NCBI GenBank assembly: GCA_016861265.1
Contig: BOLA01000001.1
Location: 934,150 to 998,149, forward strand
DNA from: Patescibacteria group bacterium
Lineage (GTDB): Bacteria; Patescibacteriota; Dojkabacteria; J137
Length of the DNA: 64,000 bases
Reading direction: 5' to 3'
The notes beneath the pieces were generated by a model. The model saw only the letters and a program-made list of their open reading frames with translations. It did not search any database and was not told the origin of the DNA. Below, one piece after another: positions 1 to 64,000 of the stretch (within the stretch, counting starts at the first letter, position 1; the number at the start of each line of letters is the position of its first letter). Position numbers and translations under genes: made by a program.

Positions 1-159
1 TTGTGGGCAAAGGAAAATAATAAGCAATATATTTATCTTGGTTCCGTTATTGATAGCAAGGCCAAATATAAACTGCAATTTCAGGGTGTTGAATGGTTTA
101 ATACAGAATCCCAACTATGGAGCAATAATGTAGAGGAACTAAAATCTATAATTAATTAA
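1..159 (+). CDS. 3' end of an upstream CDS of unknown product (partial; N-terminus is outside the window)
   Basis: Open frame from window position 1 to a TAA stop at 157-159 (…WFNTESQLWSNNVEELKSIIN*). It converges on pth. Confidence 0.3.
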   Translation: MWAKENNKQYIYLGSVIDSKAKYKLQFQGVEWFNTESQLWSNNVEELKSIIN

Positions 160-700
160 AGTTCTTAATTTTACTAAATAATTCGTTGAGTTTATTTAAC
201 TCATCTTCGGTGAATCTTCCAAGAACATAATCTGATCCGTTTATATTTTTTCTTAATTCATCTGTTCTATTATCAATTCCAATTCGTAATCGCCAGAATT
301 CAGTGGTAGAAAGTTTGTTTTCAATAGATAAAATTCCATTATGAACTTTGGGACCCTTATTAAACTGTAGTTTATATTCACCTAGTTTAATATCAAGATC
401 ATCGTGAGCGATTAAAATTTGTGAGGGATTAATTTTATAGAATTGAGCAATTGCAACCACTGCATCCCCACTGGAATTCATATATGTATTGGGTTTAGCC
501 AATAACAATTTATTATTGTCTATAACAACAGTAGAAATCTCGGACTTAAACTTAGTTTCGTTTAGAAATTGAATATTCCATGAATCTAAAAACAGAAAGC
601 CTGCGTTGTGTCTAGTTTTAAAGTAGTCCTTCCCTGGATTCCCCAGACCTACTATCAATTTAATATCGTTAATGTCGAATACCTTTTCCTGATTATTCAC
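152..700 (-). CDS. pth: peptidyl-tRNA hydrolase
   Basis: 182 aa; N-terminal LIVGLGNPGKDY…TRHNAGF is the classic Pth signature. Confidence 0.9.
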   Translation of the reverse strand: MNNQEKVFDINDIKLIVGLGNPGKDYFKTRHNAGFLFLDSWNIQFLNETKFKSEISTVVIDNNKLLLAKPNTYMNSSGDAVVAIAQFYKINPSQILIAHDDLDIKLGEYKLQFNKGPKVHNGILSIENKLSTTEFWRLRIGIDNRTDELRKNINGSDYVLGRFTEDELNKLNELFSKIKNFN

Positions 701-1532
701 CTTGAAGCTTTGTAAGATTTATTAAATTTCTTAGTAGACAGGCAATTGTAATTGGTCCAATACCTCCTGGTACTGGTGTATATATTATGTTCAAATCATC
801 TTCATCTTTTATAAAATCTCCAACCACTTTGCCTTCAATTAACTTACTGGTAACATCTATTACTAATGTATTTTCACTTAACTGTGAAAATTTGTATAAA
901 TTTCCCTTTCCAGTTGCGCTTACAACTATATTGTTACTTTTTAATAGATTCTCAATGTTGTCACTGAATTCATTCGCAATTGTTACGGTACAACCTAAAG
1001 TAGATAGAATCATTGCTAATGGTTTACCTATTAAATCTGAGTTGTTAATTATTAAAACATTTGTTCCAGGTAAATCTTTGGAATAGGAGTTTTTTATGAC
1101 TTCAAGACAAGCATCTACAGTTGCTGGAAGTATTCCGTTCATTAGATCCTGTGAGTACAATCCAAAGTTAATTGCGGATAAACCGTCAACATCTTTTAAT
1201 GGATTTATTGAATTCAAGAGTCTGTGTTTGTAGGGGGCTAGTGATTCGTGTAATGGTAATTGAATTAATATTCCATTTACCGAAGAGTCGTTATTCAGAT
1301 TATTAATTTTAGTTAATACGTCTTCTATTTTGGAATTTTCCGAGAACTGAATAAGATCAGTTTTTATACCGAGCTCGATAGCCTTTTGCATTTTTAAAGA
1401 AATATACTTCTTACTGGACGAATCCGAGCCGGCATCTATTATGGCTAGTTTTACACTCTGCATTCTGCTTAGAGAATTTTTTATATCAGTGGTTATATCC
1501 TCAGCTATTTGTTTACATTCTACTTTTGTCAT
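693..1532 (-). CDS. folD: bifunctional methylenetetrahydrofolate dehydrogenase/cyclohydrolase
   Basis: 279 aa; GILIQLPL motif and Rossmann GxGxxG-like segment; 8-nt overlap with pth (operon). Confidence 0.85.
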   Translation of the reverse strand: MTKVECKQIAEDITTDIKNSLSRMQSVKLAIIDAGSDSSSKKYISLKMQKAIELGIKTDLIQFSENSKIEDVLTKINNLNNDSSVNGILIQLPLHESLAPYKHRLLNSINPLKDVDGLSAINFGLYSQDLMNGILPATVDACLEVIKNSYSKDLPGTNVLIINNSDLIGKPLAMILSTLGCTVTIANEFSDNIENLLKSNNIVVSATGKGNLYKFSQLSENTLVIDVTSKLIEGKVVGDFIKDEDDLNIIYTPVPGGIGPITIACLLRNLINLTKLQGE

Positions 1533-1619
1533 ATTTTGATTTTAACACTTGCTAGTTGTAATAGAAATCTTAACCTACAGATATGTGATTAATATTTTGC
1601 TGGAGAAGGAATTAGCTTT

Positions 1620-1647
1620 GAGCGGCGAAGTTAAAACTTCGCCGCTC
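1620..1647 (-). terminator. 11-bp stem hairpin (GAGCGGCGAAG/loop/CTTCGCCGCTC) just downstream of the 1676..2539 gene
   Basis: Perfect inverted repeat seen in sequence; no strong U-tract. Confidence 0.4.
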
Positions 1648-1675
1648 GGCACATTTGCACTAACTATCAGATCGG

Positions 1676-2539
1676 TTATTCACAACCTACAACGGTTAAA
1701 GAGGCATCTCCCGCGTTAATAGATGCATTCGTGACAAAACTTGTGACCGCCGAAGTTGTCATGTATTCAGTCCACCCTGCTTCTATACCGCGTGCAACCA
1801 TTGCAACACTTATCTCCTCAAACCACTTTCCAACTTTTGAATCAACCTGAAGTTGTGTAGAAGTTGAGAAGCTTTGTAATGAGGAAGTAAGCAAAAGTGT
1901 GCCTGCCGTATTAAAGATCGGGAGAATGTAAACATTCCCGAATGTATATATTCCCGGCAGAGTGACCGAATTAATGCGTGGACGGTTCAAGACTGTGCAA
2001 TTGGTATCGACTGCATTTGAAAATGCCTCACCGGTCATTTCACCGTTAAAGGCTTCTACGTCACTTACGCAGTCGAATACCACCATCATCTGCGGTGCAT
2101 TTACTGTATCCACAGAGAACACAAAATCGGTGTCTGCTTCAACAGTATTGACCGAAGATACTGTAAAGGTCTTTGCCACAAAATCAGCTTTGCCCCGATA
2201 CAGTGTAAAACCATAGGTTTCCGAATGTAATGTTACCTGCCCTGTTGCACCACTCAGCGAGAATGCAAGCCACTTACTCAAATATAGGTAGTAGCGAGCA
2301 GAAACTCCTTGACGAGTGGTTGTGAAGAAATTCACCTCGCAACGATTTGGGGTGGGAGTAACATCTCCTTGTGCCTGCAACACGAGCTGTTGCGAAGCAG
2401 CTACTTCTGTTGGCTGAACCTGTTGTGTAAGCGCCGAATCCAGCGTTGGCGATGGTTCGTCCTGTGCACCTACAATAACAAAGGACAACATGAGTGGCAG
2501 AATCGCCAAAAGCACCGATAGCACTACAGCTCTCTTCAT
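1676..2539 (-). CDS. secreted hypothetical protein on a GC-rich islet (~48% GC)
   Basis: 287 aa; N-terminal signal peptide ending …VIVGAQD; composition clearly above the ~30% GC background; overlapping antisense ORFs are typical of GC-rich coding DNA. Confidence 0.6.
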   Translation of the reverse strand: MKRAVVLSVLLAILPLMLSFVIVGAQDEPSPTLDSALTQQVQPTEVAASQQLVLQAQGDVTPTPNRCEVNFFTTTRQGVSARYYLYLSKWLAFSLSGATGQVTLHSETYGFTLYRGKADFVAKTFTVSSVNTVEADTDFVFSVDTVNAPQMMVVFDCVSDVEAFNGEMTGEAFSNAVDTNCTVLNRPRINSVTLPGIYTFGNVYILPIFNTAGTLLLTSSLQSFSTSTQLQVDSKVGKWFEEISVAMVARGIEAGWTEYMTTSAVTSFVTNASINAGDASLTVVGCE

Positions 2540-2727: not shown

Positions 2728-3909
2728 TTATTCTTGTAATATTACTTTTACTTCTATCTCTTCTGTAGCACGTAAGAGCTTAAGTGTAACTTCGTCTCCT
2801 ACTCTATAACCTTGAATTACCACATTTAATGGTCTATTCTCTGTAAGTTTCTCCCCATCTACTTCAAGTATAATGTCACCTTCCTTTAAACCAGCCTTTT
2901 GTGCAGCACTATCGGGAACAATTGCTGGATCCCCTGCTAGTGAACCTTTGACAATTAGAGCACCAGTATCCACAGTTAGATTATTACTCTTCTTTAGATC
3001 CTCATCTATCATTCTGAATCTCACACCCAGTTTAGGTCTTAAGATCTTTCCGTCAGTATTTAATCTCTGTAGTAGTTCAACAACTACATTGGATGGTATT
3101 GCAAAACCAATTCCGTTTGCATCACTTGCTACAGCAACATTCACCCCGACAACATTACCACTTAAATCCAATAACGGTCCGCCAGAGTTTCCAGAGTTAA
3201 TACTAGCATCTGTTTGAATTACATCGTAGAGTTGTTCAGCTGAACCGCCCAATCTATCGGTTGCAGTTATGTTTCTGCCAAGTCCCGAAACAATTCCTGA
3301 ACTTACTGTATTACTGAATTCACCAAGTGCATTACCTATAGCTACAACAGTTTGCCCAACTTTTATTTGGGATGAGTCCCCAAAATTTAGTGGAATTAAA
3401 TTATTAGCTTCAATTTTTAGAAATGCAATATCCAACAAAGTGTCTTTTGCAAGAACTGTAGCTGCATATTTTTGCCCATCATTTAAAACAACTGTGTACT
3501 CAGCCTTTTCTTCGTCAACTACATGTCTGTTTGTAATAATCATTCCATCTTCACTGATAATAAAACCTGTTCCTGCTGCTACTTCCTGAAGCTTATCGGC
3601 ATCTGTTGAATTGTCAGTATTGTTATCTGGTAAGCCAAAGTATCTTAGAAATGGATCTGATCTTAGATTCTCAATGTCTGATACATGTTGAGATACGACA
3701 ATACTTACAACAGAATTCGATGATTTATTTGCAACATCTATTACTGCTTCTTCTTGATTTGTAACCTGTAATTGATTAACAATGCCGCCCGTTAAGGTAT
3801 TCACGGTTGCATTCGATAATCTTGCCCCGACTATACCTCCAAATAAACCAGCACAGCATGCCAGTAGAACAGTACCGCAACTAAAAACTATAAGACCTAA
3901 TTTACGCAT
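2728..3909 (-). CDS. htrA: HtrA/DegP-family serine protease with C-terminal PDZ domain
   Basis: 393 aa; N-terminal TM/signal; trypsin-like core with GNSGGPLLD catalytic Ser motif; PDZ-like C-terminus. Confidence 0.85.
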   Translation of the reverse strand: MRKLGLIVFSCGTVLLACCAGLFGGIVGARLSNATVNTLTGGIVNQLQVTNQEEAVIDVANKSSNSVVSIVVSQHVSDIENLRSDPFLRYFGLPDNNTDNSTDADKLQEVAAGTGFIISEDGMIITNRHVVDEEKAEYTVVLNDGQKYAATVLAKDTLLDIAFLKIEANNLIPLNFGDSSQIKVGQTVVAIGNALGEFSNTVSSGIVSGLGRNITATDRLGGSAEQLYDVIQTDASINSGNSGGPLLDLSGNVVGVNVAVASDANGIGFAIPSNVVVELLQRLNTDGKILRPKLGVRFRMIDEDLKKSNNLTVDTGALIVKGSLAGDPAIVPDSAAQKAGLKEGDIILEVDGEKLTENRPLNVVIQGYRVGDEVTLKLLRATEEIEVKVILQE

Positions 3910-4006: not shown

Positions 4007-4723
4007 CTATCTTCGTTTTCCGGTTATGCTCAATACTCTTATGAATAGATTTACAAAATCCAGATAAAGTTGAAGAGCACCTATAATGGCATATCTTCCA
4101 TAACCTTGCCCACTTGCCTCTGCCTCGGCAGCCAGTCTTTTTAAAGCATTTGCATCGGAAGCAATTAATACACTGAATATAATTACCACAACATAATTTA
4201 ATATTGCATTAAGACCATTAAACAATGGCGAGTTAAGCAACAACAAAACCAAATTAACAATACTAACCAGAATTACTCCAAACAGTGCAAATAAGGCGAC
4301 TGCTTGCCATCTGCTTAAATCCTTTTTAGTTACTAATCCATATACAGCAAGCACTAAAAACATTAGCGAAGATATACCGAAGGCAACAAATAGTGAACTT
4401 ACTGTGTAATTAATTGCAATTATTCCTACGGTCAAACCACTTATTAATGAATAAACAATGAATAAAATACTTGCCAGCGCAGCATTTAAACGTCTACCAA
4501 GTGCGGATAATACAACCACTAGAATTAGCTGAACTATTAAGACTGGAAAAAATAAAACTGAAAAAAGTACTAATAGTTGTGCTGATTGAGAACTTAAAAT
4601 ATTAATAATAAATGCGATTACACCAGTTAGAAATACTCCGATAGTCATCCAGCCGAATACCTGTGCTGTAAAGGTACCATTGGCAGCTACAACAGATCTG
4701 TTATCTAAATACGAATTTTCCAT
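4007..4723 (-). CDS. Bax-inhibitor-1/YccA-family polytopic membrane protein
   Basis: 238 aa, ~7 predicted TM helices; overall resemblance to BI-1/YccA family. Confidence 0.5.
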   Translation of the reverse strand: MENSYLDNRSVVAANGTFTAQVFGWMTIGVFLTGVIAFIINILSSQSAQLLVLFSVLFFPVLIVQLILVVVLSALGRRLNAALASILFIVYSLISGLTVGIIAINYTVSSLFVAFGISSLMFLVLAVYGLVTKKDLSRWQAVALFALFGVILVSIVNLVLLLLNSPLFNGLNAILNYVVVIIFSVLIASDANALKRLAAEAEASGQGYGRYAIIGALQLYLDFVNLFIRVLSITGKRR

Positions 4724-4784: not shown

Positions 4785-5858
4785 TTACTTAGTCGGTTTC
4801 TCATCCTCCTGTAATGGGTGAAAGTCATGGTGCGATTTTTCAGCAAACTTATCTGAGGCATGAACATACCTAGAAGTTGTTTGTAAGGAAGAGTGACCTA
4901 ATAATCTTTGAATTGCTACGGGACTTGCGCCTTCTTCGGCAATATATGTGGCAAAGCCATGCCTAAGGCTGTGGGCAGATGTTGGAACAATTATTCCAAG
5001 CCTAGTTCTGTATTCTTTAATCTTCATTTGAATGTAATTTTGAGAAAGTCTTATTAGATAGGGATTATTGGTCGCTTTTCGTGTACCCTTGGTTGGAACG
5101 AACATTGCAGGAAACTCATCAGTTCTATCTTTCAAGTATTCTTCTAAGAATTCCTTAGCTCTATGGGTAAGGTATACGAACCTTTGTTTCTTACCTTTAC
5201 CTAGTATATAAATTCTATCGTCTACTACTCTCCCATCTTGAAATTTAATCTGTTCCCGATTCAAATTTACTACCTCAGAAATTCTCATACCTGTGGAAAA
5301 TATCAATTCCAGTATTGCCCTATTTCTTATTTTTACAATTGGATCTTCTTCAAAGTGAGTTGGGCATTCAATTAAATCTACAAGCTCATTAAATTCAGCA
5401 ACCTGCTTTTCTTTCTTCTCAGCCTTAATTAATTTTATTGCAGACGGAGCAATTGGTGATGGTTTATCGAAATCCACCAAAAAAGTTAAATAAGATCTTA
5501 ATGCTGAAAGCATTCTGTTTACACTATTATCTGATAACTGACCCTTGTACATAGCCTTTTTTACCTCCGAAATATTATTTTGTGACTCTTCAATATCGGC
5601 CTGTGTTAACTCCATATTCTCTTTGTATTTATGAAGAATGGGAATATAATTTTGTTCTCGTAGAAATCCTTTATATTCGCTAATTGTCAGCTTATCAATT
5701 TTGCTAAATGGAGTTTCAATGTAGTATAAAAATGCTGAGAAAATTTCTAGGTCTCGACCGTAGTTATCTAATGTTTCCTTTGAATAGTTATTATTCTTAA
5801 GATTAAGTAAATATTCTCTTAGAAAGTCTAATTTGTAAGGGTTAGAAATATCGGTCAT
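4785..5858 (-). CDS. tyrosine site-specific recombinase (XerC/XerD-like integrase family)
   Basis: 357 aa; C-terminal HSLRHGFATYIAEEG…LLGHSSLQTTSRYVH contains the R…HxxR…Y catalytic signature. Confidence 0.8.
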   Translation of the reverse strand: MTDISNPYKLDFLREYLLNLKNNNYSKETLDNYGRDLEIFSAFLYYIETPFSKIDKLTISEYKGFLREQNYIPILHKYKENMELTQADIEESQNNISEVKKAMYKGQLSDNSVNRMLSALRSYLTFLVDFDKPSPIAPSAIKLIKAEKKEKQVAEFNELVDLIECPTHFEEDPIVKIRNRAILELIFSTGMRISEVVNLNREQIKFQDGRVVDDRIYILGKGKKQRFVYLTHRAKEFLEEYLKDRTDEFPAMFVPTKGTRKATNNPYLIRLSQNYIQMKIKEYRTRLGIIVPTSAHSLRHGFATYIAEEGASPVAIQRLLGHSSLQTTSRYVHASDKFAEKSHHDFHPLQEDEKPTK

Positions 5859-7495: not shown

Positions 7496-8839
7496 ATGTT
7501 GAACACACAGTTAAAAACAATATTAGATTTTGAATATAATAGGCAACATAATACGCTAGACTTGATTGCTTCCGAAAACTATACATCCAAAGCGGTAAGG
7601 GAAGCGGTAGGCTCGATATTTATGCACAAATACTCAGAAGGATATCCTGGAGCGCGTTATTACGAAGGTAATGAATATATTGATCAGCTTGAGATATTGG
7701 CAATAAATCTTGTTAAAAAAGTGTTTGAGTTACCACAAGATTGGGGAGCAAATGTACAGCCTCTAGCTGGTTCAAATGCAAATCTAGCTGTTTACAATGC
7801 AATTCTTAACCCTGGAGATAAAATTTTAAGTATGTATTTACCAGATGGAGGGCACTTGAGTCACGGTTGGAGCTACGGAACAAAGGAGGAAAAAGCCAAT
7901 GAGGATGTGAATTCTCCACTATATAGAGGCGGAAGCCGAAAAGTAAATATTGTATCAAAGTTCTTTAATGTTGTTCAGTATAAGACTGATCCCTCAACTT
8001 TTCTAATTGATTACGATAAACTTGAGCAGCTTGCCCTACAGGAGAAACCCAAGTTAATTATTACGGGTGGAACAGCTTATGTAAGGAATATTGATTACAA
8101 AAGGGTTGCTGAGATAGCAAAAAAGGTAGGTGCATATTACTTGGCAGACGTAGCGCATGAGGCAGGTTTAATTGCGGGCAAGGTTTTAGAAAGTCCAATC
8201 GGTATTGCTCATGCAGTTACCTTTACAACACATAAAACACTAAGAGGACCAAAGGGTGCAGTAATTTGTGCTAATCAAGGCATTATTGAGAAAATAAACA
8301 AATCTATTATGCCTGGACTTCAAGGTGGTCCACATAATGGAACGATTGCTGGTATTACGCAATGTTTATTCGAAGCAGATACCGAAGAATTTAGACAATA
8401 CTCGGCTCAAATTTTGGTTAATGCGAAAGTATTAGCTCAGGAGCTGACAGCAAATGGCTTTAATCTTATTACAGGCGGCACCGATAAGCATGCTATCTTA
8501 ATAGATTTAACAAATAAGAGTATTGGGGGAAAATTTGCCTCAATAGCCCTTAATGCAGCCGGGATAGTAACAAATATGAATACTATTCCTTACGAAACTA
8601 AATCCCCAATAAATCCTTCGGGACTTAGACTGGGCACACCATCAGTAACAACAAGAGGCTTTAAAGAAGAACAAATGAAACTAGTTGCAGAGTATATAAA
8701 TAAGGTAATTGATATAGCAAGTGAAGTAGATAATTCAAGTGTAGAGGCCTTTAGGGAATTGGTAAGTTCGAATTCACAAATAAAAGCCATTAAACAAAAG
8801 ATAATGGACTTGTGTACTCAGTTCCCATTGGGTGAATAA
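7496..8839 (+). CDS. glyA: serine hydroxymethyltransferase
   Basis: SENYTS…, THKTLRGPKG PLP-lysine motif; ATG at 7496 with upstream GGAG; the ORF track's earlier start overlaps the previous gene. Confidence 0.9.
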   Translation: MLNTQLKTILDFEYNRQHNTLDLIASENYTSKAVREAVGSIFMHKYSEGYPGARYYEGNEYIDQLEILAINLVKKVFELPQDWGANVQPLAGSNANLAVYNAILNPGDKILSMYLPDGGHLSHGWSYGTKEEKANEDVNSPLYRGGSRKVNIVSKFFNVVQYKTDPSTFLIDYDKLEQLALQEKPKLIITGGTAYVRNIDYKRVAEIAKKVGAYYLADVAHEAGLIAGKVLESPIGIAHAVTFTTHKTLRGPKGAVICANQGIIEKINKSIMPGLQGGPHNGTIAGITQCLFEADTEEFRQYSAQILVNAKVLAQELTANGFNLITGGTDKHAILIDLTNKSIGGKFASIALNAAGIVTNMNTIPYETKSPINPSGLRLGTPSVTTRGFKEEQMKLVAEYINKVIDIASEVDNSSVEAFRELVSSNSQIKAIKQKIMDLCTQFPLGE

Positions 8840-8901
8840 AGCCATTTTTAAGGCTTAAATTAAATGCTATTATATTTTGATTCTATTAGTTAATTATTTT
8901 T

Positions 8902-9609
8902 ATGAAGTTAACATCACTTTCTATAATATTGCCTTGCTACAACGAAGAAGAAAATGTAGAGAAAGTAATCAGGGCAGCTGATGCCGTTTGTCAAAAGGTG
9001 GCCGAAGATTACGAAATCCTAATTATAAACGACGGTAGTAAGGACCGAACTGAAGAAATTGCCAGTGGATTAACAGGTGAATTTCCTAAATTGGTTGTTA
9101 TAACTCAGGCGAATAAAGGATATGGGGGAGCAATTAAGAAAGGGTTTGAAAGCGCTTCAAAAGACTGGGTCTTTTTTACAGATTCAGATTTGCAATTTGA
9201 CTTGAACGAATTAGAATCTTTTATACCCTACTCCAGTGAATATAATTTTATATTTGGTTATAGAATAAAAAGAGCCGATAAATTTCATAGAATTTTAATA
9301 GCTAAAATGCTTAAGGTTTGGAATCGAATTCTACTAGGATTCCCATTGTATATTAAGGACATAGACTGTGCCTTTAAACTAATGAAAAGAGAAGACTTCT
9401 TGAGCATTTTTCCATTAGTTGTAGATGGAGGTCTTATAAACACAGAATTCATTTTGAAGATTCATAGAAAGGGTTATAAGATTAAACAAATCGGGGTTCA
9501 TCATTATCCGAGAGTTGCCGGTAATCCTACTGGATCTAACGTAGGCGTAATTATGAAAGCGGTAAGGGAGACTTTTAAACTTCGAAAAATGCTTGCTTCT
9601 CAAAAATAA
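8902..9609 (+). CDS. GT2-family polyprenol-phosphate glycosyltransferase (DPM-synthase/GtrB/CsbB-like)
   Basis: 235 aa; LSIILPCYNEE…INDGSKD…TDSD motifs of GT-A fold GT2. Confidence 0.8.
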   Translation: MKLTSLSIILPCYNEEENVEKVIRAADAVCQKVAEDYEILIINDGSKDRTEEIASGLTGEFPKLVVITQANKGYGGAIKKGFESASKDWVFFTDSDLQFDLNELESFIPYSSEYNFIFGYRIKRADKFHRILIAKMLKVWNRILLGFPLYIKDIDCAFKLMKREDFLSIFPLVVDGGLINTEFILKIHRKGYKIKQIGVHHYPRVAGNPTGSNVGVIMKAVRETFKLRKMLASQK

Positions 9610-9641
9610 TATATATTCGCTAAATATTCGATAATTGCATA

Positions 9642-9667
9642 AGTGCCTGGACAAGGCACTTTTTTGT
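9642..9667 (+). terminator. Rho-independent terminator (AGTGCCT-GGACA-AGGCACT + TTTTTT)
   Basis: Hairpin plus U-tract seen downstream of the GT2 gene. Confidence 0.7.
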
Positions 9668-9741
9668 TTGTACTGGTTGTAAAAAATAAATTGAACATGT
9701 ATAATGTAGTAGTTATATATAAATTTTAATATATACAACCT

Positions 9742-10356
9742 ATGATAAATATAATCTCAAAACTTAATATTTTTGTTGGTGTACTGTTGATAACAATAAC
9801 TCCGACATACTTCTATGTTTCGGCTCAACTGCAGCCTACTATTATTACGTCTAATTCATTGCCAGTAACTCAAACAGAAAGGGAAAGCAATATTCTAGAC
9901 GGTAATTTAGGTATTAGGGGTAATCTTGGCGGTGCTAATACGCTTAAGGCTATTAAGGTAACTGGAGATGGGCATGTAAAAATTGAATCGATCGGTATCG
10001 ATGCCAAAATTTACGAGGGTGCAGATTCCTCGGCTCTTGAGAAAGGGATTTGGAGAATGCCTGAGCATGGTACTCCAGACAATCAAGTTAGTGATCAACC
10101 TGTGGTATTGGCAGGACATAGATGGGGGCAAAATGACTTTACTTATGAGTACAGATCTAAGAACCTATTCTTAAATCTTCCTAGTTTAAGTAGAGGTGAT
10201 GTAATTGAAGTTACTTGGAATGGAGTTACTTATAAGTATGCAGTTACAGATGTTCAAAAGAACAATTATGTAGAAAAGTTGTCCGACTTGATCCTTATTA
10301 CTTGTGTTGATTACGTGTCAACAACTAGATACTTTGTATACGCTGAAAGAATCTAA
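9742..10356 (+). CDS. sortase-family transpeptidase
   Basis: 204 aa; N-terminal TM anchor; catalytic His in VVLAGHRWG, Cys in LILITCVDY (TLXTC), Arg near the C-terminus. Confidence 0.75.
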   Translation: MINIISKLNIFVGVLLITITPTYFYVSAQLQPTIITSNSLPVTQTERESNILDGNLGIRGNLGGANTLKAIKVTGDGHVKIESIGIDAKIYEGADSSALEKGIWRMPEHGTPDNQVSDQPVVLAGHRWGQNDFTYEYRSKNLFLNLPSLSRGDVIEVTWNGVTYKYAVTDVQKNNYVEKLSDLILITCVDYVSTTRYFVYAERI

Positions 10357-10421
10357 TAGATATTGACTTTTTTATATACTCAAGATATAATAAATATATA
10401 ACTTTTAATATAACTATATAT

Positions 10422-10712: not shown

Positions 10713-10785
10713 TTGATTTAGTCCCCTGTTTCCCTGAATTGTTACTATAAATAAAAACATTCAGGGATCAGGAATTTTGAAGAGG

Positions 10786-10822
10786 TTTTTTGACACTGGA
10801 AAATGTTGACAATATAACGAAA
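10786..10822 (+). promoter_or_regulatory. sigma70-like promoter (TTGACA-17nt-TATAAC)
   Basis: Seen in sequence; lies in the AT-rich stretch between the Cys-rich protein gene and the GC-rich islet. Confidence 0.35.
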
Positions 10823-12220: not shown

Positions 12221-12264
12221 CAGCGATCCGAACCTGACCAAAGCAATAGGCGAGAAAAGAGTAA

Positions 12265-54156: not shown

Positions 54157-55656
54157 TTGAATAATAAGAGAAATTTTAAGAGATCCAGATTCGATAGAAC
54201 ATATAAGGACTCTTCTGCTCCTAGAAACTCGAGCAGTAACAAAAGAGATTCAACAAATTATTTAGGAGATGTAACTTACTCATCTTCACGAAGAGCTAAG
54301 CCTGCTTTTGATAAAAAGAGCCGAGGTTCTGATTCCAGGCCTTATAGAGGAGGAACTTCAAGTTATGCTGTAAACAGATCAGAAAATACTCAAAAGGAGA
54401 GTTTTAACTCTAATCCTTCGAGAATTGATAGATCTTTAAACAGAGATAGATACCCTAGATCTAACGGTAGATTCGGTGAATCGAGAGGAAGATTTGGAGG
54501 TAACAGACCTGTAAGACCATACGGAAGAGGTAGAATGGATAATAAGAACTTAGATGAGATTATTAGATTTATTAAGTCTTCAGTAAACAAGCCAAAAGCT
54601 ATAGAAGTTAAAGAGGAAGAAAAATTTGTAGGTGAAATTCAAGATGTAGTTACAGAGAAAGCTTTATTAAAGAACTTATTAAATAAGGGCTTTACAAAGA
54701 CTACACCTATTCAAGCAAAGGCTATTCCTGTAATTAGAGAAGGAAAAGATATTCTAGGTTTAGCAAATACTGGAACTGGTAAAACAGCAGCATACTTAAT
54801 TCCATTAATAGAAGAAACTCTTAAAAAGAGAACTAAGACTCTAATTTTGGTTCCAACAAGAGAATTAGCTATTCAGATTAAGAATGAAATTTATCTATTT
54901 ACAAAGGATATGCCAATAAGATCAGAGATTATTATTGGTGGAGCCGACATGTATAGGCAAATTCAAAATCTAAGAAGAAATCCTGACTTTGTTGTAGGTA
55001 CACCAGGTAGAATTAAGGACCAGAAGCAAAGAGGCAACATTGTAATAAGTAATTACGACAATATTGTTTTAGATGAAGCAGATAGAATGCTTGATATGGG
55101 TTTTATTACAGAAATTAAAGATTTACTAAAAGAAAGAAAGGCAGATGTTCAAAGTTTATTCTTTAGTGCAACTATGGATAAAAAGGTTGCTCTATTAATT
55201 AATGAATTCTGTAAAGCATATTCTACAATTGAAATTAGCCAACAGAAAGTTACTGATTTAATTGATCAGAAGATTGTTACTTTTAAAGATGACGAAGCAA
55301 AAATGGAGAAAGTTGAAGAACTTTTAGGTAATTTTGACAAGTCAATTATCTTTGTAAATACAAAACATAGAGCTGATAAGTTAATGAAACATTTAAACGA
55401 AAAAGGCTTTAGAACAGACGCTTTACACGGAGATAAAAGTCAGAATTTAAGACAGAGAATCATGAGAAATTATAAAGACAATAGATTTGACCACCTAATT
55501 GCAACAGATGTTGCAGCAAGAGGAATAGATGTAAAAGATGTTTCTCACGTTTTGAATTACGATGTCCCAGCTACTGTAGAAGATTATATTCACAGAGTAG
55601 GTAGAACCGGAAGAGCCGGAAAAGTCGGAATAGCAGTAACGCTAATTAGAGAATAA
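54157..55656 (+). CDS. DEAD-box ATP-dependent RNA helicase with ~125-aa N-terminal Arg/Ser/Gly-rich extension
   Basis: Q-motif GFTKTTPIQ, motif I ANTGTGKT, DEAD (LDEADRML), SAT, HRVGRTGRAG. No ATG before 54535; the open frame from the TTG at 54157 is far longer than expected by chance in AT-rich DNA. Confidence 0.8.
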   Translation: MNNKRNFKRSRFDRTYKDSSAPRNSSSNKRDSTNYLGDVTYSSSRRAKPAFDKKSRGSDSRPYRGGTSSYAVNRSENTQKESFNSNPSRIDRSLNRDRYPRSNGRFGESRGRFGGNRPVRPYGRGRMDNKNLDEIIRFIKSSVNKPKAIEVKEEEKFVGEIQDVVTEKALLKNLLNKGFTKTTPIQAKAIPVIREGKDILGLANTGTGKTAAYLIPLIEETLKKRTKTLILVPTRELAIQIKNEIYLFTKDMPIRSEIIIGGADMYRQIQNLRRNPDFVVGTPGRIKDQKQRGNIVISNYDNIVLDEADRMLDMGFITEIKDLLKERKADVQSLFFSATMDKKVALLINEFCKAYSTIEISQQKVTDLIDQKIVTFKDDEAKMEKVEELLGNFDKSIIFVNTKHRADKLMKHLNEKGFRTDALHGDKSQNLRQRIMRNYKDNRFDHLIATDVAARGIDVKDVSHVLNYDVPATVEDYIHRVGRTGRAGKVGIAVTLIRE

Positions 55657-55660
55657 ATTA

Positions 55661-55686
55661 AAACCCGCGAAAGCGGGTTTTTTTGT
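55661..55686 (+). terminator. Rho-independent terminator AACCCGC-GAAA-GCGGGTT + TTTTTTG
   Basis: Seen in sequence. Confidence 0.8.
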
Positions 55687-55730
55687 GCCTGTTATAATTA
55701 GTTAAGCCAAGTTAAGGAGGAATAGAACAA

Positions 55731-56141
55731 ATGAGTCTGCTGACAGTTAATTACAGCGGTTCTGCTATGGCTCAAGCGCTTCCCAAGCCAGTGGGTCATG
55801 GCAATCCTCGGATAATGCTTTCCGAGTTTGGTAGTGAGGTGGAAACCGAGCTGATCAAGGCGCTGGGAAATCAGACCATTCTTCCTGTGGGCATTATAGG
55901 TACTAGTGGCGCACAGCCGTTTGGTGTAAATGCCCGCAATCGTGGAAGTGTTGAATTGCTTTTGGAACTGATTTCCCCTGTGGAGCTAGATTCCGAGGGT
56001 GTTCATGAACTTGCCGTTATCATGAGGCGTGCTGTATTGGACCTATTCAATACGCCACGTTATCAGGGCGGCAGTTATGAGCAGCTCGAGGTTCTGTCTA
56101 TGGTGGTTGTTCACAGGGGTGTATTAGTTTCTAAAGGCTGA
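55731..56141 (+). CDS. hypothetical protein on a GC-rich islet (~50% GC)
   Basis: 136 aa; extended -10 TGTTATAAT and SD AAGGAGG upstream; hairpin GCGGGAACTGC-AAGC-AGTTCCCGC at 56157..56182. Confidence 0.45.
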   Translation: MSLLTVNYSGSAMAQALPKPVGHGNPRIMLSEFGSEVETELIKALGNQTILPVGIIGTSGAQPFGVNARNRGSVELLLELISPVELDSEGVHELAVIMRRAVLDLFNTPRYQGGSYEQLEVLSMVVVHRGVLVSKG

Positions 56142-56182
56142 CAACCAACGAGCTTGGTGCGGGAACTGCAAGCAGTTCCCGC

Positions 56183-56700
56183 ATAAGTAACTACATATAG
56201 TTTTAATTGATTCCTGAAATTGTTTTTGTTGAAATTTGTATAGAAAGTTCGTGGAGTACTTTCTGTCAGGTGCATGGGTAATGCACTTTGAAATTCGGCT
56301 ACCGGCCTTATTCGACATAAGTACTCCATAGGTATAAAGCTGTATCTTCCCCTCTTCGGAGGAAAGGCAAATCAATTAAGGCATCAGGGGGCTTTCCCTT
56401 ACATCCAGATTCGCCGAGCGCAGACTCTTTTGCTTTATACATCAGCATAGTGACCGAAGTCATTCTATGCAAGGCAGCATCGGGCTTACACAAAGTATTC
56501 ACCCAGTAAGAGGCTTTGTCCTGCCTTCTTCCGGTAAGTTGTGTATGAGGTGTATTGTTAGCCACACATTTATCTCAAGCGCCGCACAATGCTCCGTTTT
56601 AAAGTTGCTCCCCAAACCTGTGGGGACCGTACTCTAGTCCTTATCTCCAGAATTTAATCATTGGAGCCCTTAAAGGGGTCTGCAACTTCGCGACTAAAGT
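56183..56700. other. ~520-nt GC-enriched non-coding region with multiple hairpins (candidate large structured RNA or decayed gene)
   Basis: Only short overlapping ORFs on the minus strand; UUCG-capped stem CCTCTTCGGAGG and other local helices; no family identified. Confidence 0.25.
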
Positions 56701-56902
56701 AGACGATTAAGATATTAACATATACTTTTAATATTCCAAACATAAATTCTATAATATTTATAGACCATGAAAGTTTCTTAAAAATGCAAACTATGTATTA
56801 AAAAATATGAGCCGGTATGTAAGTTAATTGTAAATTCTAGGTCAAATATATAACCCTCGTCTCAATTAAATAGTAGAATAAATTATTATTACATTTTTTA
56901 AT

Positions 56903-58495: not shown

Positions 58496-58927
58496 ATGCC
58501 AGTAGTAAGTGGTTTGTGGGATCAAGGACGAGTGTTCGCAGCACTCACTTGTAATCCCGAAGAGCAGCATACACAAGCCGAGGCACTAATGCTTGAGTTG
58601 TTTGAGGCAGCGCAAGCTGTTCTAGTCAAGCAACTTGAGGTTGTGCCGACGGGTATTGTGTTCTTCTGCGAGAAGCAGCCGATGCTCACCATAAATTCGT
58701 TCCCGCTGGAATTCGCCATTCGCAGCACTAAAAGCAAGGAATGGGGAAACAGGGATGATCAGCAAGAGATTATCCGAAAAGTCCTCAAGCGAATGCGGAA
58801 GGTGCTTAGGGCGTGGACTGAAGCCAAAAGGGCTAACTTTAGCGGTTGGCAGATTGGCATGGAGCTCAGCTTTATCGAGCTGTTCGCTACCAGCGAGGCG
58901 GTGGAAGAAGAAGCTGCTACGGAATAA
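58496..58927 (+). CDS. hypothetical protein on a GC-rich islet (~52% GC)
   Basis: 143 aa; upstream TGTGATATAAT extended -10 and SD AAGGAGG. Confidence 0.45.
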   Translation: MPVVSGLWDQGRVFAALTCNPEEQHTQAEALMLELFEAAQAVLVKQLEVVPTGIVFFCEKQPMLTINSFPLEFAIRSTKSKEWGNRDDQQEIIRKVLKRMRKVLRAWTEAKRANFSGWQIGMELSFIELFATSEAVEEEAATE

Positions 58928-60437: not shown

Positions 60438-60493
60438 AACTGATTATATTACAGATATTAGTTGCGAAGGAGTTTCTCCGCAACTAATTTTGG

Positions 60494-60763
60494 CTATTGA
60501 CCGGTCAGGCGGGTGAAAAGATCCCCGTATTCCGCAGGGTTGGGTTCGTTGGTGGACTTTTCGGTGGACGAAGTTGCAGGGCGATCAGTGAGTTCGCCAC
60601 TTGCCCTAGCATCCTCACGTGCCTGATGCCACGCTTCCGAAACTTCCTTCCCGGATGAGTTTGTCCCCTTCATTGCATCGACTTTGTCGTACTTATTACC
60701 GGGGACATATCCTGCATCACGCAGTACCTTTTCGTCCGAATCTTTACCTTTCGGGTCTGCCAT
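60494..60763 (-). CDS. small hydrophilic hypothetical protein on a GC-rich islet (~52% GC)
   Basis: 89 aa; SD GGAGGTG on the minus strand; composition contrasts with flanks. Confidence 0.45.
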   Translation of the reverse strand: MADPKGKDSDEKVLRDAGYVPGNKYDKVDAMKGTNSSGKEVSEAWHQAREDARASGELTDRPATSSTEKSTNEPNPAEYGDLFTRLTGQ

Positions 60764-60906
60764 CTTGCACCTCCGTGCAACTTTTAAGAACCTCCTAGCA
60801 TTGGCATAGGATTAGTAGGAGTTTATCTTCTTAAAGTATTACAGGCATTGTAATGGGATACAAAAACCTAAGGATATTTTTTAATAATTGGGTAGTGGTG
60901 TCCATT

Positions 60907-61587
60907 TCATTGAGTGAAATACAATAAGATCTTTTGCATTGCACCAATACAATCCTCAATAGGTATAGGGACTCTTGTATTCTTCTTATTATGAACGTAA
61001 ATACTTCCAATAGAAATTTTAAAATCATTTAGTTCGTCTTTTGTTAAAATTTTATTTTCTATAATTCGATCTTTTAATTGATTTTCATTTTCTAGGCCTA
61101 GTTCCATTTGCAATGCTTCCCAAGATAGTCTTAGCCATATTGCTATTGTCCTGGGATTCTTTTCTGAAGTTTCGTTATGCTGAAGTGCTGTGTTAAAACA
61201 CGTAAGCGATTGAACATGGGTAAGTTCATTAGTACTATTTATTTTTATAGGAGCTGCACCACTTATACTAAATCCTATGTCTATTGCTGCTTTTCCAGTG
61301 ATTGTTTTTCTATTTAAATCCTCCCAAACATACGTATTATTATATATGTATGTTGAACTAACCCTTGCTTTAAGCGTATTTGTAAATGCGATAGACTCTG
61401 TTATTCTTCGAGAGTAGTCTAATGCTTCACCAAGATTGAAATTTGTATTATCAAATACGCATTCAACTTCAATTTGATTCTTAGTAATTTGCTTTACACA
61501 CACAACTATCCCATTATGTATATATCGATTAGGAACAGATTTAATTAATCCATATTTGAAAGTAATTGTAGAAGTTGTCTTTTTCAT
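60907..61587 (-). CDS. hypothetical protein (last gene of the candidate defence operon)
   Basis: 226 aa ORF; 15-nt gap to the upstream Nudix gene. Confidence 0.45.
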   Translation of the reverse strand: MKKTTSTITFKYGLIKSVPNRYIHNGIVVCVKQITKNQIEVECVFDNTNFNLGEALDYSRRITESIAFTNTLKARVSSTYIYNNTYVWEDLNRKTITGKAAIDIGFSISGAAPIKINSTNELTHVQSLTCFNTALQHNETSEKNPRTIAIWLRLSWEALQMELGLENENQLKDRIIENKILTKDELNDFKISIGSIYVHNKKNTRVPIPIEDCIGAMQKILLYFTQ

Positions 61588-61602
61588 TACTGGGAGATAT
61601 TT

Positions 61603-62088
61603 TTATATATTACTTATAATACTCTTGACCTCCTCGGCTCCATCTGTTTTTAACCAGGATATTACATTAAAAAATTCTTCCATTGTAAAGAAGTTGACGT
61701 ACTTAATTTTATCGTCTTCTTTTTCGGTATCTCTTTCGTGAGGAGCTAAATTGTATTCGCTACTATTCTTATTTAGTTTTAGTAAAAATCTTAATTGAAG
61801 GTAAGTTTGATTATCTTCAATTACAGTATAGTAACCTACAAATTGAATATCTTTTATGTCTGATTCTGTTAATTCAATTCCTGTTTCTTCGTACATTTCT
61901 CGAATTATTGTTTGATTAATACTCTCCCCTTTTTCTGGATGACCACCTGGTTGATGATACTTTTGATTACCTTTAGCTACTAATACATACTTGTTGTCTA
62001 AAGATAAAGCCCAGATGTATACTTGGCGGATTTCTACGTTTAGTTGAAGGTCTAATATGTTGTGGGAGATGGTGTAGGTTGAGGACAT
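61603..62088 (-). CDS. Nudix hydrolase (canonical Nudix box)
   Basis: GGHPEKGESINQTIIREMYEETGIEL = Gx5Ex7REUxEExGU. Confidence 0.8.
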   Translation of the reverse strand: MSSTYTISHNILDLQLNVEIRQVYIWALSLDNKYVLVAKGNQKYHQPGGHPEKGESINQTIIREMYEETGIELTESDIKDIQFVGYYTVIEDNQTYLQLRFLLKLNKNSSEYNLAPHERDTEKEDDKIKYVNFFTMEEFFNVISWLKTDGAEEVKSIISNI

Positions 62089-62099
62089 TTAAGCTTTAA

Positions 62100-62513
62100 T
62101 TAAAAAAAGTTAGTTGAAGTTATTACAGTTACATTGTAATCCTTAAAAGTAGTATTCAGAAATATTGTCAAATTCCTATCATCTGATATTACCACAATAG
62201 GATCGATACCTAAGCTTAACTGCTCATTATTAATAAGAGTTTTTACTAATGCTAGAAGCGAAACATCTCCAAGTCCACGTTGTTTAGACAAAGAGAAGTG
62301 TGGATATGTATTTAGAAAAAATTTAAAACTCTCAAGATAGTTTTTAAGATCAAAATCCTCCTTTGAGGTCGCGTCAATGAAATTCGAACTCAAATTCATT
62401 AATGCTTTTACTTCAAATTCTTCTCTAACCTCTGGAGTTATAAAGCAATCTTCAGAGTAATTAATTTTATTACTTTCTAAATATATTAAACCAGTATTAT
62501 CTATTATTGTCAT
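62100..62513 (-). CDS. hypothetical protein, possibly PIN-like nuclease
   Basis: 137 aa; N-terminal MTIIDNTGLIYL resembles the PIN first-strand acidic motif; more acidic residues later (…ISDDRNL…); weak. Confidence 0.3.
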   Translation of the reverse strand: MTIIDNTGLIYLESNKINYSEDCFITPEVREEFEVKALMNLSSNFIDATSKEDFDLKNYLESFKFFLNTYPHFSLSKQRGLGDVSLLALVKTLINNEQLSLGIDPIVVISDDRNLTIFLNTTFKDYNVTVITSTNFF

Positions 62514-63709
62514 AAGTTATTACTGCTTATATACTCTTTAAAGCCTTTTTTATTTATTCGACCAAACAGTAGGTATTGAGCTTGAATATTACTGAGTGAT
62601 TTATTCTTAAGAGCATCATTAATACCTTCAACTGTTTTACTTCCATTAAATTTTCTAATCGAATAGTTAATTGGTTGGGACCGACCGTTTTGGGGAGTAA
62701 GTATTTTGGCAATCTCTGGTTGCAGATTTAAAAATTCTTCTTGAGTTATTACTCCCCTTTTTCTTAGAATCACTATTACAGCAGTGGCTGTTAATTTATA
62801 AGACTTTGCTAATTCATCTCTTATGTCTTTAGTTATAGAAATTCCAATAAATTTATTTGTAATCTCTATTGGTAAAAGAAATTCACCTACTATATCATGT
62901 ATGAAGTTTTCTTCCTTTGTTGAGGATAATGCTTCAGCTGTTAAATCTCTTTTGATTAAGTAGTCATAACTGTCTAAGCCTATTAATACTAATAGATAGA
63001 TAAGTGTATAAATTTGCCTACCTTCTCGTTCGTTAGGATTTAATTCACTAGGTAAAAAAATAAAAGGTATAATTTCATCTTTTAATACAAACCCACTAGT
63101 ATTTCTATAAATTTCTTTACAGCTATTTATAATAGGTAAGATTTTATTGTTATCAAAAACTCCTTGGCATACATTGATGTTTTTATTTTCGATTAATCTT
63201 ATTAAGTAATATAAGGCATTCTTCTTATTTAGGCGCTTAAATTCACTTGTCGAAAATTCAAAATATTTTTTTATTTCATCAGCTGCTTTTAGCTCAGTTT
63301 TATTTTTAAGTAAACCTATAAACCTATTTTTGAGTTCATCTGAGTTTTCTGATAGAAAGTTTTGACAACGTATTAACCTATCTATAATTCTTTTTGAAGT
63401 TATTTCTCCTTCGCCAAGTCTCTTTGAAAAAAAAGTTGGTGTTAGTTTAACCTTTCTTAATTCTTCTATTCTCAATAATTCCTTTTCAAGTAAAGAAGGT
63501 GTTAATAAAAAATAATACCATGGAATTAATATTTTATTACATTCATTTATTAAATCATTATAATCGATTCTATTTTCTTGCAATGCACTTGCCAAAATGG
63601 GTCTTTGCTCTAAATTTTCTTCCGGATATAGATTTAATATTTTATGAAAAACATCTAGATCAATATTCGTAGCTTTAGTTCGTTTTACTTGTAACTCAAT
63701 TGTACTCAT
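62510..63709 (-). CDS. hypothetical 399-aa protein, translationally coupled to the DUF2075 gene
   Basis: 14-nt overlap upstream, 4-nt overlap downstream; no motif recognised. Confidence 0.45.
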   Translation of the reverse strand: MSTIELQVKRTKATNIDLDVFHKILNLYPEENLEQRPILASALQENRIDYNDLINECNKILIPWYYFLLTPSLLEKELLRIEELRKVKLTPTFFSKRLGEGEITSKRIIDRLIRCQNFLSENSDELKNRFIGLLKNKTELKAADEIKKYFEFSTSEFKRLNKKNALYYLIRLIENKNINVCQGVFDNNKILPIINSCKEIYRNTSGFVLKDEIIPFIFLPSELNPNEREGRQIYTLIYLLVLIGLDSYDYLIKRDLTAEALSSTKEENFIHDIVGEFLLPIEITNKFIGISITKDIRDELAKSYKLTATAVIVILRKRGVITQEEFLNLQPEIAKILTPQNGRSQPINYSIRKFNGSKTVEGINDALKNKSLSNIQAQYLLFGRINKKGFKEYISSNNL

Positions 63710-64000
63710 TGAAATATATATAACAACCTTTCACCCCTCTAGTCATAAGCGTCCTATAGGTGTTTTTTATAATTGCATCTGCCTTTTGTTTTGCAAGTTC
63801 AGGATTTTCTTTTAACAATTTTTTATAACCTTTAATTGAAGCATCCATTTTTGACCTTTTAATAGGGTCTGTAATGACTTCTCCATTTTCTATTCTTAGA
63901 TCAGGTCCAATAATTACTCCTATATAATCTAATTCAAGCCCTTGGCAAGTATGTATACAACCTACTTCGTTAACTGATGTAGGGTACACGCTCCACAGTC
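63696..64000 (-). CDS. C-terminal part of a DUF2075-like (Schlafen-group-3-like helicase-domain) protein; N-terminus is beyond the window
   Basis: …IHTCQGLELDYIGVIIGPDLR… resembles the DUF2075 C-terminal region; the frame is open to the window edge. Confidence 0.45.
   Translation of the reverse strand, partial: LWSVYPTSVNEVGCIHTCQGLELDYIGVIIGPDLRIENGEVITDPIKRSKMDASIKGYKKLLKENPELAKQKADAIIKNTYRTLMTRGVKGCYIYFNEYN

Follow-up and report, generated by a model that had tools for sequence, protein, structure and literature searches.

Why should an AT-rich bacterial chromosome be interrupted repeatedly by short, GC-richer segments that each look like a complete transcription unit? The question is raised by a 64,000-nucleotide stretch of a Patescibacteria group bacterium (Dojkabacteria; contig BOLA01000001.1, positions 934,150 to 998,149), referred to here as the window. 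Its genome is that of a small AT-rich bacterium, probably from wastewater; the genome size of 1.1 Mb, the presence of a sortase and SpoIID, and the sample source agree with a placement in the Patescibacteria. We find that the islets (i1 to i7 and several smaller units) are real, lineage-specific accessory genes of mixed age, about a dozen in all, and that Shine-Dalgarno (SD) sequences are confined to these GC-rich islets and absent from core gene starts, which is the sharpest feature of the window and one that the initial annotation missed. We put a probability of about 0.5 on the reading that several independent acquisitions formed SD-dependent, monocistronic accessory modules, with elevated GC kept at two old loci.

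Composition and translation starts of the islets

Ten open reading frames (ORFs) make up the SD-led set: i2, a 68-amino-acid (aa) ORF at 16805, i3a, i3b, i3c, the ORF at 31373-31693, a 34-aa ORF at 49439, i5, i6, and i7. An SD is found at 10 of 10 of these islet starts and at 0 of 47 confident core gene starts (Fisher p=2e-11). The GC content at third codon positions (GC3) separates the two groups completely as well, being 0.34 to 0.75 in the ten ORFs and lower than that in all 47 core genes (mean, 0.25; standard deviation, 0.04; Mann-Whitney U=470/470, p=4e-7). Among 86 mechanically selected ORFs of the window, the median GC3 is 0.27, with a median absolute deviation of 0.03. At 4-fold degenerate sites, GC (GC4) ranges across the islets from 0.20 to 0.74. 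The islets are the following.

i1, 1676 to 2539, minus strand: 287-aa secreted protein with signal peptide ending VGAQD and a C-terminal Cys; GC 45.7%, GC3 0.41; weak SD CGGAGC; hairpin, folding energy (dG) -23 kcal/mol.
i2, 11126 to 12220, plus strand: 364-aa secreted protein; GC 60.8%, GC3 0.75; SD GGAGG; hairpin at 12250-12294, dG -23.6 kcal/mol.
68-aa small membrane protein, 16805 to 17011, plus strand: GC 40.6%, GC3 0.41; SD GAGGAGG; TATAAT at -39; hairpin, dG -18 kcal/mol.
i3 segment, 27017 to 28103, plus strand: GC 42.8%; holds i3a, i3b, and i3c.
i3a, 27017 to 27319, plus strand: 100 aa, paralogue of i3b; GC 44%; SD AAGGAG; hairpin.
i3b, 27425 to 27694, plus strand: 89 aa; GC 44%; SD GAGGAGG; hairpin.
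i3c, 27774 to 28103, plus strand: 109 aa; GC 45%, GC3 0.48; promoter TGATATAAT; SD GGAGG; hairpin.
Added 106-aa ORF, 31373 to 31693, minus strand: GC 41%, GC3 0.39; SD AGGAGT; TACAAT at -36; hairpin; present with its SD in L009.
i4, 44252 to 44440, plus strand: 62-aa ORF; GC 41.8%; promoter TGTTATAAT; weak SD AAAGGAA; hairpin, dG -18 kcal/mol.
34-aa basic peptide ORF, 49439 to 49543, plus strand: GC 43.8%; SD AAGGAG; TATAAT at -37; hairpin, dG -23 kcal/mol; kept with its SD in L006.
i5, 55731 to 56141, plus strand: 136 aa; GC 49.4%; promoter TGTTATAAT; SD AAGGAGG; hairpin, dG -23 kcal/mol.
ORF-less GC-rich segment, 56183 to 56700, no strand assigned: GC 43.2%; candidate minus-strand structured RNA or decayed remnant.
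i6, 58496 to 58927, plus strand: 143 aa; GC 50.7%, GC3 0.56; promoter TGATATAAT; SD AAGGAGG; hairpin.
i7, 60494 to 60763, minus strand: 89 aa, acidic, probably disordered; GC 53.3%; SD GGAGG; hairpin.

The SDs of the ten ORFs lie 4 to 10 nt before the start codon. Exact GGAGG precedes i2, the 68-aa ORF, i3b, i3c, i5, i6, and i7, and AAGGAG or AGGAGT precedes i3a, the 34-aa ORF, and 31373-31693; the SDs of i1 and i4 are weak. The strong SD described in the initial annotation is therefore borne out at ten ORFs. GGAGG as such is not over-represented in the window (51 copies versus 48 expected), and it is its placement that stands out. The 12 nt upstream of core genes are A/T rich, with G in only 0 to 4 of the 47 starts at each position from -12 to -1. 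The SD-less core is established for the 64-kb window and its relatives, and the pairing of a GC-rich ORF with an SD recurs in L004, L006, L008, L009, and L012, which are contigs of relatives. Neither a 16S rRNA gene nor rpsU lies within the window.

The predicted folding energy of the initiation region (-25 to +35) averages -10.2 kcal/mol for the islets versus -4.65 kcal/mol for the core (p=5e-6). The GC-richer initiation regions have about twice the folding stability of core ones, and for this reason we propose that an SD may be needed for, or may be the entry ticket to, expression of a structured, GC-richer mRNA. Core translation would start without an SD, from short, G-depleted, unstructured A/U-rich leaders. 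In core genes (e.g., 2728-3909, 4007-4723, and 54157-55656), -10 boxes are often only 7 to 35 nt from the ATG, and such close boxes suggest core mRNAs with very short or absent leaders.

A -10-like box is present 30 to 45 nt upstream of 9 of the 12 islet ORFs, and a GC-rich hairpin, in most cases without a U tract, lies within 30 nt of the stop codon in all 12 (dG, -15 to -24 kcal/mol), as the initial annotation had stated for the hairpins. Its further statement that almost all islets carry an extended -10 promoter (TGnTATAAT) was too strong: the motif is not significantly enriched (10 copies in the window versus 6.8 expected), and 4 of its copies precede islet ORFs (i3c, i4, i5, and i6). Other islets have plain TATAAT, TAGAAT, or TACAAT, and i2 has TTGACA-N17-TAGAAA. 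An islet module would consist of a sigma-70-type -10 box 30 to 45 nt upstream, a 25- to 35-nt leader with a strong SD, a GC-richer ORF, and a GC-rich hairpin. The islets do have the promoter, ORF, and terminator of their own that define an autonomous unit, and with their foreign-looking composition they form a recognizable class of accessory genes, which was one of the possibilities raised at the outset.

The segments themselves are real and GC-richer than their surroundings. A 150-bp scan places the large GC excursions where they had been reported, although the GC of these segments is 40.6 to 60.8% (~41 to 61%) rather than 45 to 60%, in a window of 34.3% GC. All of them coincide with ORFs except 56183-56700, which has no convincing one. 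The two segments that had been listed as tentative, 16805-17011 and 49439-49543, both proved to be SD-led, GC-richer ORFs with a hairpin, and 31373-31693 is an addition to the original list. Remaining GC bumps either fall inside ordinary genes (e.g., 3101-3293 and 4826-5006) or are tRNA-Glu and tRNA-Gly. The islets are flanked by housekeeping genes (FolD, HtrA, SHMT, sortase, DEAD-box helicase, and tRNAs); in the gene content of the window, no transposase, integrase, or repeats were seen flanking them, and the sole integrase-family gene (4785-5858) is Xer-like, conserved, and syntenic. Both i1 and i2 encode a signal peptide with the ending AQD/E, and the other islet proteins look like cytoplasmic proteins, small membrane proteins, or basic peptides.

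Two neighboring features can be added. A tRNA-Gly(CCC) gene at 44710-44784, 270 nt downstream of i4, has been retained in this 1.1-Mb, 34% GC genome; it reads GGG codons, of which core genes are expected to have few. A 95-aa ORF at 18133-18420 (minus strand) is highly charged, Ser/Arg/Glu rich, and 44% GC, lacks an SD, and has no Pfam match; its N terminus, RGLGSPNMDEKTKRKIQSAGGKA, resembles what we take to be the repeats of KGG-type stress proteins.

Coding status, relatives, and age of the islets

In AT-rich genomes, a GC-rich patch often turns out to be an RNA gene; 56183-56700 lacks a good ORF, and its minus strand folds well; and i2 contains a full-length antisense ORF. These points would fit the view that the islets are artefacts, whether assembly chimeras, contamination, or structured RNAs misread as ORFs. 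However, a 1,114,243-bp NCBI contig and many independent Logan/ENA assemblies encode exactly these islet proteins, and contigs from eight or more other runs are 89 to 100% identical to the window across islet junctions. Because identical or near-identical junctions recur in at least eight independent assemblies, chimerism, the caveat that the initial annotation had set beforehand, is excluded.

The ORFs also evolve as coding sequences. Substitutions at codon positions 1/2/3, counted against strains 5 to 10% diverged, are 4/0/24 for i5 versus L008 (22 synonymous and 4 nonsynonymous), 3/5/18 for i6, 6/4/17 for i3a versus L009, 4/0/11 for i3b (12 synonymous and 3 nonsynonymous), and 6/2/11 for i3c. 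The concentration of substitutions at third positions shows that i3a-c, i5, and i6 are translated genes. Orthologues of i2 hold the reading frame at 56 to 58% aa identity, and Rfam at its gathering threshold finds only two tRNAs in the window. We regard the artefact reading as largely refuted for the ORF islets, and its overall probability is very small. The exception is 56183-56700, which is 98% identical in two strains versus 91 to 96% for neighboring genes. Its minus strand has a fold z score of -3.6 (0 of 100 shuffles as stable), versus -1.6 for the plus strand, and contains several UUCG/GNRA-type hairpins. A search of 55600-56900 in the expect value (E) mode of Rfam gave nothing credible at E≤10 beyond noise. 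The segment could be a new structured RNA or the remnant of a decayed gene.

Housekeeping proteins from the two distant lineages, L004 and L011/L012 (which cover positions 1 to 12.6 kb of the window), give the tree ((window, L012), L004), with identities to the window of 70 to 92% for L012 and 52 to 90% for L004. In each of the two comparisons, flanking genes have reached saturation at 4-fold sites, where identity is approximately the compositional expectation. Gene order is kept as FolD-[i1]-HtrA-BaxI-Xer-...-SHMT-GT2-sortase-96aa-[i2]. The i1 counterparts lie between HtrA and FolD in L012 (GC 45%) and L004 (GC 44%), so that i1 GC is 44 to 46% in the three lineages. The i1 protein follows the species tree and evolves fast, with 72% identity to L012 in global alignment (74% by tblastn) and 26 to 27% to L004. 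In contrast to the species tree, the i2 family is 56 to 58% identical in all three pairwise comparisons, its alleles being equidistant (0.55 to 0.58). Its GC is ~60% and its GC4 is 0.69 to 0.75 in the three lineages, versus a GC4 of 0.05 to 0.32 in the flanks.

The i1 and i2 loci and i3a-c recur in every relative seen, although the i2 site of L012 holds a non-homologous gene. The initial annotation had reasoned that islets found syntenic and with the same composition in relatives would be ancient host genes with biased amino-acid content. Such conservation is what we see at the i1 and i2 loci but not at i7, which is absent from one strain, or i6, for which no homologue below 91% identity was found among 5.8 billion proteins. 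Biased amino-acid content alone is insufficient for i1 and i2, because their synonymous sites are GC-rich too.

Other islets vary between close relatives. The segment at 60460-61621, which holds i7 and a 226-aa ORF, is replaced in L008 (9116-10755) by genes for cytidylate kinase and GTP cyclohydrolase II. Just beyond the i7 segment, relatives carry type I restriction-modification, AAA ATPase, and SLFN/AlbA genes. From this replacement and these adjoining genes, the right end of the window appears to be a variable, ORFan-rich region. The 3' half of i5 and its hairpin (55939-56177) are deleted in L006. In L012, a GC-rich 71-aa membrane-peptide ORF behind a GGAG (10990-11205, minus strand) lies between the i1 orthologue and FolD; this extra unit is absent from the window, which has a 143-bp spacer there, and from L004, and we take it to be an independent example of islet gain or loss. 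Polarized changes in i5 and i6 together are 24 GC>AT versus 15 AT>GC, implying an equilibrium GC of 0.39 versus the current 0.51. In i3a-c, GC at 4-fold sites is near background and amino-acid usage is of GC type.

Two observations concern genes near the i3 segment. An extra 217-aa VTT-domain (DedA-like) gene is present in L009 (7490-8150), and the equivalent position of the window, 25889-25923, has no gene. The SpoIID-domain protein at 29454-31364 (minus strand) has 75% nucleotide identity to L009, with 63 gap columns, and its neighbors have 88 to 97%; judged from this alignment, it is another fast-evolving gene and its product is probably surface exposed.

The i2 expression site

The elements upstream of i2 are as follows.

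96-aa sortase-substrate-like surface peptide, 10422 to 10712, plus strand: immediately follows the sortase gene (9742-10356); anchors the i2 cassette locus on its 5' side.
i2 promoter, 10897 to 10925, plus strand: TTGACA at 10897-10902, 17-nt spacer, TAGAAA at 10920-10925; palindrome CAACTGTAtTTTACAGTTG at 10901-10919.
i2 5' leader, 10932 to 11125, plus strand: ~190 nt, structured; invariant AUUCUCUCAACU at 10970-10981; SD GGAGG at 11115-11119.

The 800-bp block at 10300-11100, which comprises the end of the sortase gene, the 96-aa ORF, and ~400 nt upstream of i2, is 93 to 100% identical to L004, whereas the flanks are ~70% and the i2 coding sequence is ~56 to 71% identical. The block is also strongly conserved in L012 and L016. 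Within it, the 96-aa ORF (L004 9299-9589; L012 1813-2166) has 93 to 100% nucleotide identity, and its 4-fold sites have an identity of 0.86 to 1.00 versus 0.45 expected, a degree of synonymous conservation that points either to constraint at the nucleotide level or to recent exchange between lineages. The encoded protein combines a signal peptide and a Cys-rich core with an APHTG motif, a hydrophobic stretch, and a KNLKKNA tail, and from these traits it looks like a sortase substrate. An exact look-up of this protein for further cassette variants returned the same species-level clade only, and scans of JGI metagenomes with the 96-aa protein and with the i2 alignment were both empty.

The i2 promoter is invariant in five sequences from three lineages. 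The near-perfect palindrome in its spacer occurs nowhere else in the window (0.09 expected) and could be an operator. No operator common to the islets was found: neither the palindrome nor the anti-SD box recurs outside i2, and the leader is single copy. RNAalifold folds the leader into 55 pairs, of which 13 have compensatory changes among the five sequences (approximately three lineages), including GGC/GUC to AUC/GAU around a GCAA loop. In the predicted structure, the invariant UUCUCU pairs with the i2 SD, GGAGGA. Rfam in E-value mode on 10250-11200 gave no match above noise at E≤10, and in our model the leader is a candidate new cis-regulatory RNA. Because the UUCUCU element is predicted to mask the SD, translation of i2 is probably switched by a signal.

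What follows the leader varies. The first codons, ATG TTC AA, are invariant and common even to the unrelated gene of L012, and the SD is kept at the locus in all lineages. The L012 site encodes a non-homologous, SD-led, 463-aa secreted protein (56% GC; GC3, 0.64). L016, from the same sample as L011 of the L012 lineage, has an i2-family gene there and is indistinguishable from L012 over the first ~50 nt of upstream sequence. Behind its conserved structured leader, the i2 locus acts like a replaceable cassette, and the coding cassette would join the ultra-conserved promoter and leader at ATG TTC AA. An import can be seen in L002, which is 100% identical to the window over 12.5 kb except for a block of ~8% divergence at 8400-11400, from SHMT through the 5' end of i2; this divergent block indicates active homologous recombination in the i2 region.

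Such clear recombination, together with an 800-bp block that is near-identical between deeply diverged lineages and i2 alleles that depart from the species tree, could favor the view that the islets are recombination hot spots at which GC-biased gene conversion (gBGC) has raised local GC. However, the rise in GC begins and ends with the ORF, the leader and the 96-aa gene have only ~38% GC and a GC4 of 0.05 even though they recombine, and i5 and i6 drift toward AT. The effects of gBGC in bacteria are reportedly (Lassalle et al. 2015) far below a GC3 shift from 0.25 to 0.75, which also counts against it. We consider gBGC improbable as the cause of the islets.

Origin of the islets and comparison with known systems

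Database searches place few islet proteins in any wider context. In an all-against-all BLASTP comparison, only i3a and i3b are related, which rules out one protein family for all islets. Pfam, NCBIfam, PHROGs (nine proteins), and PADLOC (ten proteins) assign no family to any islet protein, and tblastn of nine islet proteins against 50,697 phage and 72,556 plasmid records gave no match. Collections of 5.8 billion proteins and 1.84 billion representatives were searched with i1, i2, and i6; the coverage of i3a-c, i4, i5, and i7 came from the domain libraries and the phage and plasmid tblastn, with IMG/VR scans for i3c, i5, and i7. Full-length homologues of i1 and i2 are found only in sister lineages. 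The sole part with outside relatives is the C-terminal ~95 aa of i2, an undescribed, often tandem extracellular domain found in 234 representative proteins and without a Pfam model. A scan of a genome collection found one distant locus with the i2 domain, and the species of the window was not among the matches. An i2-domain homologue in an unrelated contig of ~45% GC is itself a 62% GC island. Three tandem copies of the domain are encoded in L005 (7320-8933) and L018 (1021-2400), at 62 to 64% GC and a GC3 of 0.75 to 0.78, on contigs of ~45 to 50% GC whose other genes lack SDs. A sequence search of the PDB gave only noise (the best being residues 43 to 91 of i2 against beta-gamma-crystallin, E 0.037, and i5 against designed helical repeats), and AlphaFold models are too poor for fold assignment (pLDDT, 56 for i2 and 28 for i1).

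The initial annotation had called the islets moron-like and suggested repeated acquisition from one source, such as a phage or plasmid. The likeness in organization holds insofar as the islets are autonomous promoter-SD-ORF-hairpin units between unrelated genes, a layout that is that of classical morons, but they lie in a chromosomal housekeeping context and have no phage homology. In favor of one mobile source, be it of phage morons or of prophage or plasmid remnants, one can further cite the 55.7- to 63.7-kb region, which is ORFan-rich and adjoins restriction-modification genes in relatives, and one result from IMG/VR. Of six scans there (among them i3c, i5, and i7), five were empty, and in the sixth a 34-aa stretch of i7 was 50% identical to part of an ORF that neighbors a portal gene on a contig of ~49% GC. 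This match is weak and insufficient for a claim of origin because its seed was an exact 8-mer and the collection is very large. With the phage and plasmid tblastn, PHROG, and PADLOC searches all null, with housekeeping flanks, and with the only integrase-family gene conserved, a phage or plasmid origin is not upheld, and we regard it as improbable, at about the level of gBGC. A single source of any kind is unsupported because the proteins are mutually unrelated (except i3a and i3b) and GC3 spans 0.34 to 0.75.

The reading to which we give even odds is instead that genes were acquired horizontally, independently and at different times, from sources that have a higher GC and use SDs, with no single donor. 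The young members would be i5, i6, and i7, which are confined to one species-level clade, are strain-variable, and appear to be drifting to AT. The older i3a-c would have retained GC-type amino acids with largely AT-type synonymous sites. Two old loci, i1 and i2, would encode fast-evolving secreted proteins whose elevated GC has been kept in three lineages. Several points weigh against this reading. Of the marks of recent transfer, atypical composition is present (GC3 of 0.34 to 0.75 versus 0.25 ± 0.04), but donor homologues and mobility genes are not found; the searches of the large protein collections with i1, i2, and i6 returned no donor. The amelioration signal in i5 and i6 comprises only those 39 polarized changes, and the i3, i5, i6, and i7 loci fall outside the part of the window covered by the distant lineages. 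Whole modules were not imported unchanged, because their promoters are of host type. In addition, simple un-ameliorated transfer fails for i1 and i2, because their synonymous GC persists beyond saturation: the GC4 of i1 is 0.36 in the window and 0.37 in L012 despite saturated 4-fold sites, and for i2 the 4-fold identity between lineages is 0.41 to 0.46 versus 0.30 to 0.33 expected, which is near saturation, yet GC4 is high. This persistence implies either selection or a biased process, or repeated replacement of cassettes from an unsampled GC-rich pool. Replacement is favored by the non-tree-like alleles of i2 and the polymorphism between L012 and L016; maintenance is favored because no donor was found and the SD-masking leader looks functional.

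Maintenance is the basis of a rival that we think possible but clearly less probable than independent acquisition. It states that the islets are a native, dedicated class of old residents, not foreign, held at a separate compositional equilibrium by selection on mRNA stability or structure or as an anti-SD-dependent translational regulon. The GC4 of ~0.72 for i2 and ~0.36 for i1 across lineages with saturated synonymous sites, the SD retained at i2 in all lineages behind an apparently covarying leader predicted to mask it, the complete separation of SD status and GC3, and the i2-domain GC island in an unrelated, SD-poor genome all agree with it. There is also a precedent in SD-poor Bacteroidia, in which the anti-SD is sequestered and the rare SD gene rpsU is specially regulated or autoregulated (PMC7797042, PMC9976891, PMC13000453). 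In contrast, the restriction of i6 to one species-level clade, the strain variability of i7, the net GC>AT drift of i5 and i6, the background-like 4-fold GC of i3a-c, the non-homologous genes at the i2 site of related lineages, and the lack of a common sequence family or regulatory motif are difficult to reconcile with a native class. More speculative, and in our view unlikely, is the proposal of two initiation regimes: an SD-less, AT-rich core and an insulated, SD-dependent, GC-rich set whose GC, including synonymous sites, would be actively maintained and whose expression would be gated by SD availability, through the SD-masking leader at i2 and possibly through ribosome heterogeneity or anti-SD accessibility. 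The islets would then be a host-interaction regulon of an episymbiont rather than debris of horizontal gene transfer.

Whether by independent acquisition or otherwise, the atypical GC of i1 and i2 outlasts synonymous saturation, which contradicts the routine assumption that atypical GC means recent transfer. If the dichotomy is genome-wide, it shows how foreign or specialized genes are expressed in a bacterium that does not itself use SDs. It also bears on whether candidate phyla radiation (CPR) bacteria such as Parcubacteria (anti-SD motif found in only 48% of 16S rRNAs; PMC9297842) keep an anti-SD for a small set of accessory genes. With its promoter, operator-like palindrome, predicted SD-masking leader, and exchangeable GC-rich secreted cassettes beside a sortase and a surface peptide, the i2 locus is a candidate host-interaction or antigenic-variation system in an uncultivated episymbiont.

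Among known systems, the islets most obviously recall phage morons, which are said (Juhala/Hendrix 2000) to be autonomous promoter-gene-terminator units in lambdoid phages. Like these, the islets are compact, self-contained, accessory units of odd composition, some of which are present or absent between close relatives. Unlike them, they lie in a cellular chromosome among housekeeping genes and not embedded between conserved phage genes, they match no phage homologue, and two of their loci are conserved across deep lineages. In the model attributed to Lawrence and Ochman, horizontally acquired islets reportedly ameliorate toward host composition. The atypical GC and codon use, the ORFans, the strain variability, and the apparent young-to-old gradient, from high GC3 drifting to AT to genes in which only positions 1 and 2 are GC-rich, agree with that model. 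However, no donor or mobility gene was found, i1 and i2 do not ameliorate, and the islets are single genes with host-type promoters.

The translation starts resemble those of SD-poor Bacteroidia in having a core without SDs, A-rich and G-poor upstream sequences, and few strong-SD genes. In those bacteria the anti-SD is sequestered by bS21/bS18/bS6 and the SD gene is rpsU, whereas the SD genes described here are GC-rich ORFans in a window without 16S rRNA. Leaders that sequester an SD are known as riboswitch expression platforms and as ROSE and fourU RNA thermometers. The i2 leader would be similar to these in its conserved, apparently covarying helices and in an anti-SD element predicted to pair with GGAGG, but no Rfam family matches it, and in different lineages it is followed by non-homologous cassettes. 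Finally, although no silent archive, invertase, or repeat system was seen at i2, where exchange appears to occur between genomes, the locus is like variable surface-protein cassette loci in that the promoter, leader, and first codons are fixed and the secreted-protein genes downstream are divergent or non-homologous, with alleles that do not follow the species tree.

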